This document shows, in pieces, positions 1,866-61,219 of a stretch of 61,912 nucleotides of DNA (positions within the stretch are counted from its first letter, which is position 1; every line of letters starts with the position of its first letter). The position numbers and the translations under genes were made by a program. The stretch covers positions 1-61,912 of the forward strand of contig CAYWEO010000006.1 of assembly GCA_964457855.1 (NCBI GenBank), in the 5' to 3' direction. This stretch comes from an uncultured Opitutales bacterium. Its GTDB lineage: Bacteria > Verrucomicrobiota > Verrucomicrobiia > Opitutales > CAYWEO01. The notes under the pieces are model-generated. The model searched no databases and was not told the DNA's origin. It worked only from the letters and a program-made list of their open reading frames with translations.

Positions 1866-2185
1866 TTCGAAAACTTTTCTTATCCCGAGAAAAGAAATGG
1901 GACATCGAGCATGGCATCTCTTTCGAGCGGCGGGTGCGTTGCGCATCGGATCGCAAATTGCTTACGTATTTCTTATATACGCGCGCAATTTGCGCTCTCG
2001 CGCGCCTGCCCGTCATCTCGAAATAGGAGCCACGCTCGACGTCCCAACGTTTCCGAACCTTCAAAAGAAAAGCGATATCGGAAGGCATTTTTCCGGCACT
2101 ATGTGCCAGAAAAATGCCTTCCGAATAGGAGTTTTTTTGGAAAGGGTCCGGGAAAACCTATTTTTGTAAAAAATGGTTTTCCCGG
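1866..2185 (-). repeat. Tripartite hairpin mosaic, order H3-H2-H1 on the + strand, with H3 interrupted by L element copy L1
   Basis: H3 pieces lie at 1866-1898 and 2046-2057, H2 at 2078-2124 and H1 at 2148-2185. The conserved linkers CCTTCAAAAGAAAAGCGATA and ATAGGAGTTTTTTTGGAAAGGGT are present. Confidence 0.85.
1899..2045 (+). repeat. L element copy L1 (subfamily LC, about 147 nt long imperfect hairpin)
   Basis: The outer stem GGGACATCGAGCATGGCATCTCTTTCGAG pairs with CTCGAAATAGGAGCCACGCTCGACGTCCC. The basal loop is CGG opposite TCAT. The apex is GCAAATTGC-TTA-CGTAT..ATACG-CGC-GCAATTTGC. Confidence 0.85.
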
Positions 2186-2652
2186 CGGTTCCGATAAAGG
2201 CAAACCGAAAAATTGGCGTTGGACGTGATTGTTGACAGGAGGGTGAAGGCATCTTCGAAGGGGGGGAAGAAGGAGTCGCCGGGAGGGGTCTGGTGGACGG
2301 TTGTGAGGAAGAGGGTCTGGCAGTAGGGGAGGAGGCGGGAGTAGATTTCGCTTCCGCCGCAGACCCAAATGATTGGGTCGGAGAGGGTTTTGATGTCGGA
2401 GAGGGAGTGGAGGACGGTGACGTTGGGGATGGATAAAGATTGCCGCGAGAGGACGATTGTTTTGCGTCCTGGGAGCGGGAATCCGATGGATTCGAAGGTT
2501 TTTCTGCCCATGAGGAGGGTATGGCCGAGGGTCGTCTTTTTGAAAAAGGCGAGATCTTCGGGGATGTTCCATGGAATGCCTCCTTGGTAGCCGATGACGC
2601 GGTTTTGGGCCATAGCGGCGATGGCGTGGAGGGTTGGGGCGGCGGTTGTCAT
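2158..2652 (-). CDS. folA: Dihydrofolate reductase
   Basis: Carries the DHFR signature [43 protein letters not shown]. Its start overlaps the thyA stop (ATGA). The last 8 codons and the stop lie inside repeat hairpin H1. Confidence 0.9.
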
Positions 2653-9159: not shown

Positions 9160-9162
9160 GTA

Positions 9163-9332
9163 TTCGGAAACTTTTCTTTTCCAGAGAAAAGAAGAAGTTT
9201 CCGAACCTTCAAAAGAAAAGCATATCGGAAGGCATTTTTTAGGCACGTAGTGCCACAAAAATGCCTTCCGAACGAGAGTTTTTTCAGGGGAGGTCCGGAG
9301 GGGGTTGTTTTTGCAAAAAATACCCCCTCCGG
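9163..9332 (-). repeat. Complete tripartite hairpin mosaic (H3-H2-H1 on the + strand)
   Basis: H3 lies at 9163-9205, H2 at 9225-9271 and H1 at 9295-9332. It fills the mreD-mrdA spacer. Confidence 0.9.
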
Positions 9333-9369: not shown

Positions 9370-11238
9370 ATGGAATCCAAACGAGCTTTTGAGTCTTACC
9401 CCAAGGGGATGCCGCGCTTAGTGTTTTTTTACGCTTTGGTCGGTGGGTCGCTGTTGATTTTGTGGCTGGGGCTGTTTTGGAGGCAGGTGGTTTGCGGGAA
9501 AGTGTTTGATGATCAAGGGAAAGCGCAAAGTCTTAGGCGTATCGTGCTTGTGCCCTCCCGCGGAAAGATTTTTGACCGGAAAGGGCGTTTGTTGGCGGGA
9601 GATCGTCCACGTTATTCGGCGGTTATTTATTTGAACGAATTGAGGCCGGAATTTCGTGCTTTGTACGCGAAATCTGTAGAAAATTACCGACGTCTGAAGA
9701 AACCTTTCAGCAAGGATGAGTTGCAGTGGAGTGTGCGAAGGGACGTTGTTCAGCGGCACGTTGACGTGATGAATCGCCTCCTCAAAAAGCGCATACAAGT
9801 CGATAGCAAACGCATAGAGCTGCATTTTTCTCAGCGTTTGTTGCTGCCAATGAAGGTGTTAGAGGACCTTTCTGAAGACGATTATGCAAAGCTGATGACG
9901 CGGTTGCCGGCGGGGTCTCCGATCCAAATAGCCATTGATAGCGTCCGGTATTATCCCTATGGTTCTGCAGCCTGCCACGCGTTGGGATACGTCGTCAACG
10001 ATTCTGCCGATGCGGGGGATGGGGGTGAGGAAGATTTGATGACGTTTTCAGGCCAAGAAAGGGTTGGCAAAACGGGATTGGAGGCCTCCTTTGATTCCTG
10101 GCTACGCGGGACCAGCGGGGGCGAAATTTGGTTGGTGGACCCCTCTGGAATGCAATATGAACGTTTGTTGGCGATCAAGGCGCAGGCCGGCAGGGACCTT
10201 TATACGAGCCTCGATATTGACTCGCAGATTGCTTGCGAACGTGCGTTTGGAGACGAATGCGGCGCCATCGTGATGCTAAAGGTCGCAACGGGGGAAGTCT
10301 TAGCGATGGTAAGCAAGCCGGATTTTGACTTAAATGATTTGACTCCAAAGATTTCCAACAAGGTTTACGACGATATTTCAGAAAAGGGGGCTTGGATCAA
10401 TCGTGCCCTCCAAGGACTTTATCCGCCCGCGTCACCCTTCAAACTCGTTGCGACAACGGCGATGCTGCGGAAAGGTGTTGTTGACGAGAGTAGTTTTGTT
10501 GAATGCACGGGCGGATACGAGGTGGGCGATCGGACATTCCACTGCCATCGGCTTAGCGGACACGGTTTCGTGAAGCTAAAGGAGGCGATTCAGTTGAGCT
10601 GCAATCCCTTTTACTACAAATATGCCCTGCGCTGCGGCCCGAGAGACATTTGCGCTGAAGCAAAGGCGTTCGGGTTCGATAAACCCACCGGCATTGAACT
10701 CCCGTTCGAGGCCCACAGAATGTTGGTTCCAGACCCCGATTGGAAGATGCTCAAAGGATTGGGTCGCTGGACGGATGGAGACACGGCGAATTTGGTCATC
10801 GGCCAAGGATTTACGCGCATCACTCCCCTCCAAATGGCGTGTTTTGTTGCTTCCATTGCACATCAAAAAATGCGCATAAAACCGACCATTTTACGCTGCG
10901 ACGGCCCTCAAACCGGCGATCAAGAACCGTTAGGCCTCAGCGCAGAAAAATACCAGGCGATCGTCAATGGAATGATCGGAAGCGTCGACGAAGGTACTGG
11001 CCAGCGCGCTCAGGTCGCCGGCCTCAACCTCGCCGGAAAAACAGGGACCGGTCAAATCCAGTTAGACCGCCCAGGCAAATTCAAAAATATCGCTTGGTTC
11101 GTCGGTTTTGCACCCGCTCAGGCCCCCGAAATCGCCCTCGTCATCCTCATCGAACGCAGCCCTGAGGGCTACGGCATCACCGGTGGCATGACCGCCTCGC
11201 CCATTGCACAGGCCATTTTACGTGATTGGGTGCAATAA
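9370..11238 (+). CDS. mrdA: Penicillin-binding protein 2 (elongasome transpeptidase)
   Basis: Has an N-terminal TM segment and the motifs SPFK (SxxK), SCN (SxN) and KTGT. It lies next to mreBCD. Confidence 0.9.
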   Translation: MESKRAFESYPKGMPRLVFFYALVGGSLLILWLGLFWRQVVCGKVFDDQGKAQSLRRIVLVPSRGKIFDRKGRLLAGDRPRYSAVIYLNELRPEFRALYAKSVENYRRLKKPFSKDELQWSVRRDVVQRHVDVMNRLLKKRIQVDSKRIELHFSQRLLLPMKVLEDLSEDDYAKLMTRLPAGSPIQIAIDSVRYYPYGSAACHALGYVVNDSADAGDGGEEDLMTFSGQERVGKTGLEASFDSWLRGTSGGEIWLVDPSGMQYERLLAIKAQAGRDLYTSLDIDSQIACERAFGDECGAIVMLKVATGEVLAMVSKPDFDLNDLTPKISNKVYDDISEKGAWINRALQGLYPPASPFKLVATTAMLRKGVVDESSFVECTGGYEVGDRTFHCHRLSGHGFVKLKEAIQLSCNPFYYKYALRCGPRDICAEAKAFGFDKPTGIELPFEAHRMLVPDPDWKMLKGLGRWTDGDTANLVIGQGFTRITPLQMACFVASIAHQKMRIKPTILRCDGPQTGDQEPLGLSAEKYQAIVNGMIGSVDEGTGQRAQVAGLNLAGKTGTGQIQLDRPGKFKNIAWFVGFAPAQAPEIALVILIERSPEGYGITGGMTASPIAQAILRDWVQ

Positions 11239-11310
11239 AGTATTCCGGAGGGGGTATTTTTTGCAAAAACAACCCCCTCGCAGTCTCCCCTGAAAAAACT
11301 CTTATTTGAC

Positions 11311-11434
11311 ACCGTAGCGATTTCGAGCGCTAGGGTTCCGTTACAGGAAAATTCCAACCCCATCACGTACGTTAGTACGCTCAGGGGTTAAAATTTTCCC
11401 GTAGCCGTCCCTATCATCTCGAACTTACTACGGT
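11311..11434 (+). repeat. L element copy L2 (subfamily LA)
   Basis: Sequence by helix: ACCGTAGCGATTTCGAG-CGC-TAGGG-TTCCG-TTACAGG...CC-ATCA-CGTAC-GTTA-GTACG-CTCA-GG...CCGTAG-CCGT-CCCTA-TCAT-CTCGAACTTACTACGGT. Confidence 0.9.
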
Positions 11435-11523
11435 GCCACACTTGAAGCTTCGGGAAAACTCCCCTTTTTTTGCTCAGCATGAGCAAAAAATATCGCTTTT
11501 CTTTGGAGGGTGCGGGAACCGTT

Positions 11524-11667
11524 GGGACCTCGGGCGTGGCTTCTCTTTCGAGATGATAGGCAGGCGACCAAGGTCGCAAATTGCGCGCGTATTGTAATAC
11601 GTAAGCAATTTGAGATCCGATGGGCAACGCACCTAGCGCTCGAAATAGATGCTACGCACGTGGTTCC
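11524..11667 (-). repeat. L element copy L3 (subfamily LC, opposite orientation)
   Basis: Reads GAG-ATGA-TAGG...GCAAATTGC-GCG-CGTAT-TGTA-ATACG-TAA-GCAATTTG...CCTA-GCG-CTC, with a 29-nt outer stem related to that of L1. Confidence 0.85.
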
Positions 11668-11784
11668 ATTCTTTTCTGATGATAAGAAAGTTTTCCGAAT
11701 TAGCTTTCCTTCTTCCCCTCCTCTAAAAACACGATTGACAGTGGGGGTAATTTATGGCTTCTTTATGAGTTTTCACCAAAAAGT

Positions 11785-12744
11785 ATGCGATTAAGGATTG
11801 AGCGGGCGTCGGAGTTTTTATTATTCGATTTATCGATTAGGGAGACCTCTTTGAAGGGGGTTTGGTACCTGTGTGTCTTGTATTTGGGGACGATTTTGTT
11901 GGCGGTGGGGGTGTCTCCTTGGATTTATTGGGCGATGCAGCTGTGGAGGGACTGGTTTCCGAACGACCTGAATCGTTATTTGTGCGGGAAGGATTTTATT
12001 GATTACTTTGAGCGCGTGAGGTGGATCGCGGTTTTGGTTTTTCTGCCGTGGTTGTTGAGGGCTTGCCGTGTTGGGTCGTTGAAGCGCTTGGGTGTGTGTT
12101 GGGAATGGAAGGCTTTTTGGCGTTATGGGCTTTTTGGCATTGGGATGTTGATCCTTTTGAGCCTTGCGCAGGGGTTTGCGGGAAAAGTCACGTTTACAGG
12201 GGGGCGGTTGGCGTCGTTGGTGAATTTCGTCTTAGCGGGCCTGATTTTGGGGTTTGTGGAGGAAGTGCTGTTTCGCGGGATCGTTCTGAGACTGTTTTAT
12301 TCGGCAACTAAGACTCCTTTGGTGGCGGCAGTATTGAGCGCATTATTGTTCGCCTACACGCACTTTAAGGCTCCCGTTGGGGGGCACGTCGGTCAAGTGC
12401 TTTGGAACAGCGCTGTTCCGGCGGGCATGCAAACGGTGTGGGGAATTTTCCAGTCCTTCGACTGCGTTTTGTTCATGAATTTATTTGGACTGGGTTTGTT
12501 TTTAAACCTGCTGTTCTTGAGAAAACGGACGTTGATTCCGTGCATTGCCTTCCATGCGGGAATCGTGTTTGCAATGTTGGCGTACAAGCGGTTTTTCCGT
12601 ATCGAAGTGATTGATTGGAAGGCGTTTTTGGGGTCTAATCGGGTGACAGATGCGTGGTTCGTGTTCGCCGTATGGGTGATTGGCATCAGCATTTTAATGT
12701 TCAAATTGGGGAAGGGTGGCCGTGAAAAAGTGGAGTTGGCTTAA
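11785..12744 (+). CDS. CPBP family intramembrane glutamic protease (CAAX protease-like)
   Basis: Carries the EExxxR motif (VEEVLFRG) and later His motifs (FAYTHF, AFHAG) in a polytopic membrane protein. Confidence 0.8.
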   Translation: MRLRIERASEFLLFDLSIRETSLKGVWYLCVLYLGTILLAVGVSPWIYWAMQLWRDWFPNDLNRYLCGKDFIDYFERVRWIAVLVFLPWLLRACRVGSLKRLGVCWEWKAFWRYGLFGIGMLILLSLAQGFAGKVTFTGGRLASLVNFVLAGLILGFVEEVLFRGIVLRLFYSATKTPLVAAVLSALLFAYTHFKAPVGGHVGQVLWNSAVPAGMQTVWGIFQSFDCVLFMNLFGLGLFLNLLFLRKRTLIPCIAFHAGIVFAMLAYKRFFRIEVIDWKAFLGSNRVTDAWFVFAVWVIGISILMFKLGKGGREKVELA

Positions 12745-15689: not shown

Positions 15690-15798
15690 TTCGGAAGGCA
15701 TTTTTTGGCACTTAGTGCCAAAAAATGCCTTCCGATATGACTTTTCTTTGAAAGGTTCGGAAAACGTTTCTTTTCTTCTGAAAAGAAACGTTTTCCGA
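15625..15798 (+). repeat. Complete tripartite hairpin mosaic (H1-H2-H3), a near-canonical copy
   Basis: H1 lies at 15625-15664, H2 at 15690-15734 and H3 at 15755-15798. All three are near-perfect palindromes. Confidence 0.92.
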
Positions 15799-15817
15799 AT
15801 ATTCCTTCCTCCCCCAA

Positions 15818-25253: not shown

Positions 25254-25256
25254 ATA

Positions 25257-25452
25257 TTCGGAAACTTTTCTTTTCAGAAGAAAAGAAGAAGTTTCCGAAC
25301 CTTCAAAAGAAAAGTCATATCGGAAGGCATTTTTTGGCACTCCGTGCCATAAAAATGCCTTCCGAACGAGAGTTTTTAAGGGGGAGGCCCGGAGGGGGTG
25401 CTTTTTGCAAAAAACACCCCCTCAGGGAAAAAGCACTTTGGCCCCCCTCCGG
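25257..25452 (-). repeat. Complete tripartite mosaic (H3-H2-H1) plus an extra H1 arm fragment
   Basis: H3 lies at 25257-25299, H2 at 25320-25365 and H1 at 25389-25426. An additional CCCCCCTCCGG arm lies at 25442-25452. Confidence 0.9.
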
Positions 25453-37937: not shown

Positions 37938-38073
37938 CCACCCTAAAAACTCTTAAATGCGGAAGGCATTTTTGATTGGCACTATAGTGCCAATCAAAAA
38001 TGCCTTCCGATACCGCTTTTCTTTGGAGGGTTCGGGAACCTTTTCTGTTCTCGCGAACAGAAAGGTTCCCGAA
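37938..38073 (+). repeat. Partial tripartite mosaic (linker-H2-linker-H3)
   Basis: H2 at 37959-38010 has a 3-bp-longer inner stem, GATTGGCAC/GTGCCAATC. H3 lies at 38031-38073. Confidence 0.88.
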
Positions 38074-38089
38074 ATTCCCTCTCCCAAAA

Positions 38090-41605: not shown

Positions 41606-41773
41606 CCGGAGGGGGTATTTTTTGCAAAAACAACCCCCTCCGGACCTCCCCCGAAAAAACTCTCATTCGGAAGGCATTTTTTTGCCATGCTGGCGAAAAA
41701 ATGCCTTCCGATACCGCTTTTCTTTGGAGGGTTCGGGAACCTTTTGTTTTCATGGAAAACAAAGGTTCCCGAA
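41606..41773 (+). repeat. Complete tripartite mosaic (H1-H2-H3)
   Basis: H1 lies at 41606-41643, H2 at 41667-41711 and H3 at 41732-41773. The H2 loop contains the in-frame ATG at 41687. Confidence 0.9.
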
Positions 41774-43459
41774 TTATTTCTTCTCCTCCTGCCCTACCTT
41801 CTTCTAATTGCGTGGGTGGTTGTTGGTCTTACGGGGCATCATCCGTGGAAGCCGGACGAGGCATATACATTGGGGCTCGTGAATCACATCGCGAAGACGG
41901 GGGACTGGGTGGTGCCAACGCTTGCAGGGGAACCGTTTATGGAAAAACCTCCGTTGTTTTTTATGACTGCAGCGTTTTTCGCAAAAACGTTCTCGAAATG
42001 GTGTTTTTTTCATGATGCTGCGCGCTTGGCTGCTGGATTTTTTTCAAGTATTCTACTCATTGCGGTCGGATTGACAGCGAAGAAAATTTTTGGGAAGGGG
42101 AGGGCGCTTTTTGCCGCTCTGCTCTTGGCGGGGTGTCCGGCGGCCCTCGTCCACTGTCATCAGCTAATTACCGATGTTGCTCTGATTGCGGGAATTGCGA
42201 TCGCTCTCTACGGAGGGTGTTGTATCGCCGAGAAAGGGATGCGCGGGCCTTTTTTCTTGGGTTCTGGAGTCGGTATCGCCTTCTTATCCAAGGGGTTGCT
42301 GGCTCCAGGACTCCTGGGAATTACTTGCATAGCGCTCTTTCTGTTGCGTCCATACCGCTCAAAGCAATACGCAAAAAACCTGCTGTTTGCCGTTGTTTTT
42401 GCGCTCCCATGGCTGCTGATTTGGCCTTACGCGTTATATCAACGATCTCCGCAGCTCTTCCATGAATGGTTTTGGGTGCAGAACATTGGGCGTTACTTCG
42501 GTTTGATGACGGCGGTGTCTGCGATTAAAGACCCGTTTTTCTACAATTTGATCGGCTTGTGGCCCTTCTTCCCGGCGGTGGTCTGCGCGGCGGTGGTTTT
42601 TTGTAAACGGCATAAAAATATCCTGCAAAACGTTCCCATGCAATGGGTTCTAGGCTATTTTGTCGTCTGCCTAACGGTGTTGAGTCTGTCGAGACATGGA
42701 CGGCAATTGTATGCACTTCCCCTCGGGCTACCGCTTGCGATTTTGGGGAGTGAAGCGGCGTTTTGTTGTTTCGAACGTTTGAAAAAGTGGAGCGGTTTAT
42801 TTAAGTGTTTGATGATCAGCATCTTCGGAATCGTTGCGTTCGGAACCTGGCTGACTTGGATCGGCTGTCTCTTGGAGTGGCCTATCGCGTTTTTATTGGG
42901 ATTCCAGGAAACATTTGCGCCCGGTTATGTGTTCGAATTCGAGGGGTTGTTTGTGGGAACGGCGTTGTTTGTGACGATTTTATGGCTCATCATTAACCTA
43001 TTTTCCCGTCCCAACATTATCACAGCCTGGACGAGTGGCGTAACGTTGACGTGGTCCCTCGTCATGACACTTTGGCTGCCCTTCATCGACTACGGGAAGG
43101 GGTACAGCAGAGTGATGCCGGAAATGGCGACACATTTCCCGAAAAACACCCTCGTTATGAGCTACCGTTTGGGCGAACCGCAAAGGGCGCTTTTTGATTA
43201 TTATTGTCCGGGAAAATTGGCGCATCGCATCGAAAATCCGGCATTTTGGCAGCAATTACGGCCCGAATGGGGAAGTTTTTCGGGAAATGACCCCTTAAAA
43301 CGCTTTTTTCAGCTAAAAATGCCTCCGCACACGTGTTTGCTGATTCAAGGAGTTTGGCGGCATCCACCGGATTTCATGCCGGCTTTGTGGCGACTCATTT
43401 GGGAAGGAGCGAGACCGGCGGATGATGGCGAGCACTTTTGGCTGTTTGAGAAGATGTAG
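41687..43459 (+). CDS. GT39/GT83-type (ArnT/PMT-like) membrane glycosyltransferase
   Basis: Carries the DE motif and loop HHPWKPDEAYTLGLVNHIAKTGDWVVPTLAGEPFMEKPPLFF, followed by many TM segments. The start is uncertain: the in-frame ATGs at 41585 and 41687 both lie in or before the repeat, and the first start codon after the repeat (GTG at 41816) would truncate TM1. Confidence 0.75.
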   Translation: MLAKKCLPIPLFFGGFGNLLFSWKTKVPELFLLLLPYLLLIAWVVVGLTGHHPWKPDEAYTLGLVNHIAKTGDWVVPTLAGEPFMEKPPLFFMTAAFFAKTFSKWCFFHDAARLAAGFFSSILLIAVGLTAKKIFGKGRALFAALLLAGCPAALVHCHQLITDVALIAGIAIALYGGCCIAEKGMRGPFFLGSGVGIAFLSKGLLAPGLLGITCIALFLLRPYRSKQYAKNLLFAVVFALPWLLIWPYALYQRSPQLFHEWFWVQNIGRYFGLMTAVSAIKDPFFYNLIGLWPFFPAVVCAAVVFCKRHKNILQNVPMQWVLGYFVVCLTVLSLSRHGRQLYALPLGLPLAILGSEAAFCCFERLKKWSGLFKCLMISIFGIVAFGTWLTWIGCLLEWPIAFLLGFQETFAPGYVFEFEGLFVGTALFVTILWLIINLFSRPNIITAWTSGVTLTWSLVMTLWLPFIDYGKGYSRVMPEMATHFPKNTLVMSYRLGEPQRALFDYYCPGKLAHRIENPAFWQQLRPEWGSFSGNDPLKRFFQLKMPPHTCLLIQGVWRHPPDFMPALWRLIWEGARPADDGEHFWLFEKM

Positions 43460-51996: not shown

Positions 51997-52168
51997 CCGG
52001 GAAACCCCCTTTTTTATAAAAAAGGGGGTTTCCCGGACCCTTCCCCCTAAAAATTTTTATTCGGAAGGCATTTTTATGGCACGTAGTGCCAAAAAATGCC
52101 TTCCGATATGCTTTTCTTTTGAAGGTTCGGAAACTTCTTCTTTTCTCTGGAAAAGAAAAGTTTCCGAA
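51997..52168 (+). repeat. Complete tripartite mosaic (H1-H2-H3)
   Basis: H1 lies at 51997-52036, H2 at 52061-52106 and H3 at 52126-52168. Confidence 0.92.
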
Positions 52169-52186
52169 AAAATTCCCCCTCTCCTC

Positions 52187-54894: not shown

Positions 54895-54942
54895 AAAACA
54901 AACGGTAATCGTAGGAGACGTTGGTAGTGGAGCAATTAAAAA

Positions 54943-55170
54943 TTCGGAAAACTTTCTTTTCAGAAGAAAAGAAACGTTTTCCGAACCTTTCAAAGAAAAG
55001 TCATATCGAAAGGCATTTTTGTTCGGACTTATGGTCCGAACAAAAATGCCTTTCGAATTGAGAGTTTTTAAGGGGGAGGTCCGGAGGGGGTGCTTTTTGC
55101 AAAAAACACCCCCTCCGGCAGGTAAGCACCCCGGGAAACCCACTTTTTTATAAAAAAGTGGGTTTCCCGG
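54943..55170 (-). repeat. Tripartite mosaic with duplicated H1 (H3-H2-H1b-H1a on the + strand)
   Basis: H3 lies at 54943-54985. H2 at 55006-55056 has the inner stem GTTCGGAC/GTCCGAAC. One H1 lies at 55081-55118 and a second H1 at 55131-55170. Confidence 0.9.
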
Positions 55171-56968: not shown

Positions 56969-57142
56969 CCGGGAAACCCCCTTTTTTATAAAAAAGCGGG
57001 TTTCCCGGACCCTTCTCACTAAAAATTTTCGTTCGGAAGGCATTTTTTCAGCACGTAGTGCTAAAAAAATGCCTTCCGATACCGCTTTTCTTTTGAAGGT
57101 TCGGAAACTTTTTCTTTTCTCGTGAAAAGAAAAGTTTCCGAA
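56969..57142 (+). repeat. Complete tripartite mosaic (H1-H2-H3)
   Basis: H1 lies at 56969-57008, H2 at 57032-57079 and H3 at 57100-57142. Confidence 0.92.
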
Positions 57143-57162
57143 ATTATTTTATTTTATACCCC

Positions 57163-58070: not shown

Positions 58071-58238
58071 CCTGGAAAACCATTTTTTGCAAAAATTAGT
58101 TTTCCAGGGCCCTTTCCAAAAAAACTCTCGTTTCGGAAGGCATTTTTTGGCACGTAGTGCCAGAAAAATGCCTTCCGATATGCTTTTCTTTGAAGGGTCC
58201 GGGAAACTTTCTTTTCGAAGAAAAGAAAGTTTCCCGGA
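58071..58238 (+). repeat. Complete tripartite mosaic (H1-H2-H3) inside the atpD-atpC spacer
   Basis: H1 at 58071-58108 has CCTGG...CCAGG ends. H2 lies at 58132-58178 and H3 at 58198-58238. Confidence 0.9.
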
Positions 58239-58255
58239 AAAACATCCTCCTTATT

Positions 58256-61065: not shown

Positions 61066-61219
61066 GAAAAGACGGCATCTATTTTGAGATGACGAGCAGG
61101 CGCGCGAGGTCGATTGGAGACCATCCAATCCCCCAATTCCTGAGCGTACTGACGTACGTGATGGAATTGAGATCCGATGCGCAACGAACTCGCCGCTCAA
61201 AATAGATGCCGTCTTTTTC
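61066..61219 (-). repeat. L element copy L11 (subfamily LB, opposite orientation, longer apical arm)
   Basis: The 23-bp outer stem GAAAAGACGGCATCTATTTTGAG pairs with CTCAAAATAGATGCCGTCTTTT(T)C. The core reads GAG-ATGA-CGAG-CAGG-CGCGC...CC-TGAG-CGTAC-TGAC-GTACG-TGAT-GG. The right end overlaps the atpA stop codon. Confidence 0.9.

Follow-up and report, generated by a model that had tools for sequence, protein, structure and literature searches.

Nested palindromic repeats in an uncultured Opitutales bacterium: a long hairpin element lodged in one arm of an array hairpin and probably copied together with it

The DNA analyzed here (the window) is a 61,912-nucleotide stretch of contig CAYWEO010000006.1 (assembly GCA_964457855.1) from an uncultured Opitutales bacterium. 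At two distant loci in the window, a hairpin designated as H3 is split by a palindromic element designated as LC, at the same spot and in the same relative orientation, as the initial annotation had described. This nesting is far beyond chance, and the genome contains 7 full LC-in-H3 composites and ~9 partial copies or deletion footprints (~16 loci together). The annotation had offered two options, targeted insertion of LC into H3 or copying of a composite of both. The genome-wide data favor copying, whereas repeated insertion into ordinary H3 hairpins found no support. The nested composite was probably propagated as a unit by homology-driven copying between arrays and then shuffled and eroded. 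There is also support for the more general reading, in which these elements are products of mobility or recombination and not static regulatory hairpins.

The composites of the two loci (1866–2057 on the plus strand and 11511–11699 on the minus strand), when oriented alike, align end to end with ~81–85% identity, and blastn matched one to the other with E values of 1e-52 to 1e-54. Their parts are listed in Table 1. At both loci, LC, the long hairpin, separates the distal part of the H3 3′ arm (GAAAAGAA..) from the basal part (..GTTYCCG) and is located in the same orientation on the side of H3 that adjoins the array linker. The exact limits of LC correspond to a length of 144–147 nt. The start of locus 2 had been placed at 11503, which includes 8 nt of the array linker; H3 itself ends at 11511. 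The T preceding LC and the A following it are a mutual pair and are jointly changed to C..G in one genomic copy, indicating that both bases belong to the insert. The array of locus 1 is located between the convergent genes for an AMP-binding enzyme and thyA, and a 164-aa ORF intervenes on the thyA side of the array. This ORF (2158–2652, minus strand), which is upstream of thyA on that strand, is probably folA as judged by size and position alone. Its 3′ end is inside the hairpin hp3 of the array, and its last codons or stop codon are apparently supplied by the repeat. As a taxonomic marker, thyA was uninformative, with 60–67% identity to sequences of several phyla, Verrucomicrobiota among them. 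The array of locus 2 is located between the PBP2 gene and an Rce1-like gene. A motif resembling a hammerhead (CTGATGA...GAAA) is present in the locus 2 H3 loop, but it was rejected because other copies do not have it.

Table 1 Coordinates of the two nested loci, of intact H3 modules in the window, and of the LC-in-H3 composites and their remnants in the genome. Plain coordinates refer to the window; contigs of the genome are designated by C and a number (C6 is the contig of the window).
Feature	Position	Strand	Remark
Locus 1, H3 basal 5′ arm	1866–1874	+	starts 9–10 nt past the stop codon (1854–1856) of the AMP-binding enzyme gene
Locus 1, distal H3 hairpin	1875–1897	+	marker A at 1882 in a 5′ arm that is otherwise pyrimidine-only
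Locus 1, LC element	1898–2046	+	147-nt imperfect hairpin (1899–2045) with T/A closing pair 1898/2046
Locus 1, H3 basal 3′ arm	2047–2057	+	
Locus 1, array linker	2058–2079	+	comes after H3 in all arrays; T-rich tail of hp2 on the minus strand
Locus 1, hairpin hp2, type a	2078–2124		intrinsic-terminator-like on the minus strand
Locus 1, hairpin hp3	2146–2186		
Locus 2, H3 basal 5′ arm and distal hairpin	11668–11699	-	marker A; oriented toward the 5′ side of the Rce1-like gene, which starts at 11785
Locus 2, LC element	11524–11667	-	144 nt; nearest relative is the copy on contig C3 (6–8% divergence)
Locus 2, H3 basal 3′ arm	11511–11523	-	H3 subtype unlike that of the 5′ arm
Locus 2, array linker	11490–11510	-	
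Locus 2, hairpin hp2, type b	11466–11490		terminator-like for the upstream PBP2 gene
Locus 2, second L-family element of another subfamily, same array	11312–11437		
Locus 2, hairpin hp3	11245–11285		after the PBP2 stop codon (11236–11238)
Intact H3 and linker without LC (comparator)	9160–9231	+	
Other intact H3 and linker in the window	25254–25326, 54941–55012	+	
Other intact H3 and linker in the window	15729–15804, 38004–38077, 41705–41776, 52100–52172, 57073–57145	-	
Full composites	C6:1866, C6:11699, C41:2188, C3:56418, C26:142, C4:17480, C10:27134		
Partial copy	C2:85671		H3 left half and LC left arm, then break
Partial copies	C26:3444, C3:68282–68500, C2:21917–22130, C8:10324–10540, C21:9806, C2:10011, C2:48225		right end of LC kept, continuing into H3 right arm and linker
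Footprints	C1:55613, C11:27477, C23:11069		composite-type H3 left half and first 4–5 nt of LC

H3 is not free-standing and forms the first module of an array with the order H3, a fixed purine-rich linker, hp2, a second linker, and hp3. In the genome (1.08 Mb in 43 contigs), an HMM of H3 plus linker detected 186 intact modules, along with 23 right halves; the overall number of arrays is ~190, and intact LC-free modules of H3 and linker number ~170–190. Arrays and L elements (the repeat family that includes LC, see below) make up at least 2.3% of this reduced genome and adjoin many gene ends. Because 25 of the 86 contig ends fall in or beside H3 or L repeats, these repeats break the assembly, and all counts of composites and repeats given here are lower bounds. 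The H3 modules are divided into four subtypes, in which both basal arms and the linker vary together. The subtypes comprise 62, 35, 17, and 11 copies (examples in the window are 9160–9231, 38004–38077, 54941–55012, and 58172–58241). The basal stem differs between them and the adjacent linker changes in a mirror-like manner: the 3′ arm ends in T(m-1)C(n), and C(n)T(m-1) comes after an intervening GAA or GGA. This pattern could be due to plain descent of four subfamilies or to a pyrimidine mirror repeat with a role of its own, e.g., as triplex-prone DNA.

In 76 of 176 arrays, H3 begins at a median of 9 nt past the stop codon of a long ORF, and hp2 with its linker, when read from hp3 toward H3, is similar to an intrinsic terminator. 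A probable role of the array is to terminate transcription in both directions. In a set of 400 genomes from the order, H3-type arrays were found only in G026, a member of another family, which has many copies of the H3–linker–hp2 architecture with a different sequence and compensated changes (array loci L002, L004, L008, L010, and L012), and no L or LC. The presence of the array in a genome without L indicates that the array is older or more widespread than the invasion of L, and the array may be functional. A protein-based metagenome scan detected no relative, and nothing with the junction pattern was found in metagenome contigs.

LC belongs, as a subfamily, to the abundant L repeat; nhmmer located L at ~112 loci with a cutoff of E ≤ 1e-3 and at 148 with E ≤ 1. 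L has a conserved core of ~100 nt, and its outer stems vary between copies yet still pair. The LC apex is of two kinds, which cut across the groups of outer stems. Rfam 15 contained no matching family at the gathering threshold, and its E-value mode gave only chance microRNA-precursor-like matches on hp2. At least 13 L copies begin directly 3′ of a tRNA gene in one orientation relative to the tRNA (e.g., C9:8804, C5:927, C5:448, C14:12729, C14:23766, C1:51847, C27:3306, and C4:45286), and their outer stems start at or just past the CCA or discriminator region.

Other nestings involving L were also observed. A third level of nesting is formed by a small hairpin, whose flanks are conserved and whose stem varies, in the right arm of L, always at the same position. 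This hairpin was found in at least 9 L copies of differing outer stems and contexts (61074–61210 on the minus strand of the window, C14:10525, C3:11035, C5:562, C1:97116, C10:10995, C19:4796, C26:3452, and C8:10356), several of which have lost the normal L apex by deletion. In a second recurrent composite, present in ~9 arrays, the usual hp2 is replaced by an L whose outer stem is of the GGA(C/G)GGCC type. This L always occupies the same place in the array, flanked by the hp3-side linker and by a short hairpin of a T-run and an A-run, hp2 type b (C14:7481–7592, C10:27376–27492, C19:4660–4796, C20:2370–2485, C20:6397–6518, C3:11035–11168, and C14:10525–10675). The LC composites C6:11699, C4:17480, and C10:27134 each share an array with an hp2 of type b and an additional L element; in the C10 array, this element is the copy of the second composite on that contig.

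Tabulation of the LC contexts in the genome agreed with the proposed tie between LC and H3 for every LC-type copy. An LC-type outer stem was not found outside H3 anywhere in the genome, and no other L subfamily was found inside H3. A core-less “socket” hairpin with the LC outer-stem sequence was looked for and not found. The junction and the orientation relative to the linker are identical in all composites, partial copies, and footprints. Removal of the insert regenerates a sequence that also occurs among intact H3 copies, without any duplicated bases, and LC therefore has no target-site duplication. In the footprints C1:55613 and C11:27477, the sequence passes straight into the linker after the LC start, and the junctions fit deletions between direct repeats of 3–4 nt. 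C23:11069, in which a short stretch resembling the LC left arm is followed by the H3 3′ arm and the linker, fits such a deletion only roughly.

The alignments of the full composites begin at −15 to +6 nt from the H3 base in 21 of 21 pairs, and the 1.5 kb around them contains nothing that matches except other arrays. A segmental duplication is ruled out by this start at the H3 base and by the unrelated flanks, and the left edge corresponds to the limit of array homology. The two loci in the window likewise share no flank identity beyond the repeat array; the two findings that the annotation had named as refuting its claim, LC copies with no association to H3 and extended flank identity, were thus both absent. 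The LC copies form three sister pairs with divergences of 0.08 (c2–c4), 0.09 (c3–c6), and 0.14 (c1–c7). In the H3 left half (30–32 nt), the same three pairs differ at 1, 4, and 5 positions by edit distance vs 6–9 for the others. A Mantel test of LC against the H3 left half gave r = 0.66 with an exact p of 0.002 (10 of 5040 permutations were as good), a test of low power on only 7 full copies that are not independent. In addition, the pyrimidine 5′ arm of the distal H3 carries a marker A in 10 of 11 copies of the composite lineage vs 2 of 169 intact H3 hairpins; the script had flagged 5 intact copies, 3 of which were anchoring errors, and the Fisher value of 4e-12 uses the uncorrected 5. The shared genealogy and the private marker indicate that the composite was copied as a unit, rather than by repeated entry of LC into random H3 hairpins. 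C23:5398, an LC-free copy with the composite-type arm and marker A, may represent a clean loss of LC.

A common genealogy of LC and its host was thus seen for the left half of H3, but not for its right half and the linker (r = −0.41 against LC). The hp2 type (a or b) differs inside each sister pair. At locus 2, the 5′ arm is from one H3 subtype and the 3′ arm and linker are from another, and the hairpin is therefore recombinant. Furthermore, the cores of three partial composites are nearest to ordinary non-LC L copies elsewhere in the genome (0.04–0.10). The mismatch of the right side, hp2, apex, and cores with the LC genealogy indicates that the repeats behave as concentric and serial modules that exchange by recombination.

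These observations can be combined in the following scheme. A long palindromic L copy would have lodged in the H3 3′ arm of one array lineage with no target duplication. The H3 left half and LC were then copied as one unit to other array sites, as shown by their co-inheritance and by a left boundary that falls sharply at the H3 base. Ectopic gene conversion or replication template switching between arrays would, we infer, be the most likely route, not a site-specific transposase. Later exchange among repeats would have replaced the right side (H3 3′ arm, linker, and hp2) and sometimes the inner L core or apex, and deletions mediated by short repeats would have removed LC from some copies, leaving footprints. 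The copying mechanism is deduced from the sequences of seven full copies in a single genome.

Some features fit this scheme less well. The composites are on three H3 subtypes, and the basal arms and linker match in 6 of 7, the pattern expected of independent insertion into different resident H3 hairpins; unit copying needs either a few founding events or conversion tracts that happened to keep the arm matching. The apparent breakpoint at locus 2, within ~4 nt of the LC end, is awkward for simple homologous conversion from an LC-free partner. These mostly matching arms and linkers, together with the identical junction and orientation in all copies, would be explained if LC were a non-autonomous mobile element that targets one position in the H3 3′ arm and had inserted many times independently. 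The clean junction without target duplication resembles that of single-strand HUH-type transposition, other fixed-position nestings are present here (the small hairpin in L and L in arrays, as described above), and REP sequences are known as insertion targets (PMC1525189). However, the H3 left half shares the LC genealogy, the lineage-private marker is nearly missing from the pool of possible targets, and LC was found neither outside H3 nor as a core-less socket hairpin. Y1/RAYT (PF01797), IS110 (PF01548), DDE_Tnp_1 (PF01609), and rve (PF00665) had no match in the assembly, with positive results for control genomes; the search covered these four families in a 92.7% complete assembly, and a transposase could sit in the unassembled 7% or belong to another family. 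Many independent insertions are therefore unlikely, and site-specific insertion of LC may still account for one or a few founding events. Structure-guided building of hairpins within hairpins is a more tentative idea that we regard as quite unlikely; LC-in-H3 would then be a true targeted insertion, via either a hairpin- or cruciform-specific recombinase or a replication-templated process of inserting and swapping concentric palindrome shells. Nesting at a fixed position occurs at three levels (the small hairpin in the L right arm, L in the H3 arm or array position, and H3 in the array), with no target duplication at any of them and none of the four searched transposase families.

The composite might also be a functional variant of the terminator array under selection, e.g., a three-way-junction RNA or a protein-binding DNA structure. 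LC pairing is kept, and 14 of 51 pairs have changes on both sides in the alignment of only seven full composites. The folding z-scores are −12 (locus 1) and −9 (locus 2), the arrays are located at gene ends with terminator-like hairpins, and the H3–linker–hp2 architecture is conserved in another family (G026). DNA palindromes, however, are also expected to show compensated stems, and wobble pairing on one strand or the other does not account for the mismatches seen in four copies. With respect to neighboring genes, the orientation is variable: a gene end precedes 4 of 11 copies, whereas 5 of 11 are directed toward a gene start. The LC of locus 2 lies beyond the terminator-like hairpin of the upstream gene. 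With the distal H3 hairpin degraded in composites, LC being lost by deletion, and no Rfam match, we consider this explanation improbable. A segmental duplication or an assembly artefact of this repeat-rich metagenome-assembled genome might be suspected from the 43 contigs and the many contig ends in or beside repeats, but it is barely credible for flanks that are unrelated from the first base beyond H3 and for seven copies that are 6–31% divergent and lie beside different genes.

Small palindromic repeats are common in bacteria, and the route by which they spread is often unclear, especially without a transposase. The LC insertion is a natural tag for tracing the history of such a repeat, as half of the surrounding H3 hairpin travels with it and the shared sequence ends exactly where array homology ends. 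Such behavior points to copying between dispersed arrays by the cell’s own recombination or replication machinery, and the same exchanges likely drive rearrangements and rewrite the 3′ ends of genes. For annotation, the LC and H3 loci are repeat DNA, and neither genes nor riboswitches.

Among known systems, the arrays are comparable to BIMEs, mosaic elements of REP palindromic units in enterobacteria and pseudomonads (PMC3333891, PMC2817692). Both consist of hundreds of short hairpin units with fixed linkers in modular intergenic arrays at gene ends, their modules reassort between copies, and target duplication is absent. The palindromic units and fixed linkers that define such mosaic arrays are present here in 186 intact modules of four subtypes. 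In contrast to BIMEs, there is no sequence similarity, and a RAYT gene flanked by REPs was not found, as the genome has no match to PF01797 (Y1/RAYT). Moreover, a 147-nt palindrome is nested here in one arm of a unit, and the nested form itself was propagated. The BOX, RUP, and SPRITE repeats of pneumococci are similar in that they cluster together and appear to be old bursts that are now decaying (PMC3049150). Nestings are described as sporadic there (PMC3049150), whereas one nesting with a single junction recurs ~16 times here and is inherited as a unit. RUP has TIRs related to those of IS630-Spn1 (PMC3049150), and no partner IS was found here.

IS1397, ISPpu9, and other insertion sequences insert at defined positions of REP palindromes (PMC1525189, PMC12288879) and thus resemble LC as mobile DNA at one defined position inside a repeated extragenic hairpin. 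They are, however, autonomous, with a transposase gene of their own, and their insertions into REP copies are independent of each other, while LC encodes nothing and half of the host hairpin is co-inherited with the insert, which does not agree with independent insertion. ERIC, IRU, and RU-1 are also imperfect palindromes of ~100–150 nt at gene ends with a conserved core (PMC3184786), but the outer stems of L are specific to copies or lineages. A blastn search (word size 11) of LC (1899–2045) and another L copy, L015, against 5,426 complete E. coli genomes gave no match at E ≤ 10. A TA target duplication is listed for ERIC-type MITEs (PMC3184786); no direct TA repeat flanks LC, whose outer bases, a left T and a right A, are paired and covary. 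LC shares the generic features of MITEs in being short, non-coding, and multicopy with inverted ends (~16 LC-derived loci), while it has no target duplication, and no cognate transposase or IS was found among the four families searched in the 92.7% complete assembly. Membership in the families of REP/BIME with RAYT, ERIC, or REP-targeting IS is not supported. Mosaic bacterial repeats are already known, and LC-in-H3 is a new example in a lineage without close sequenced relatives.
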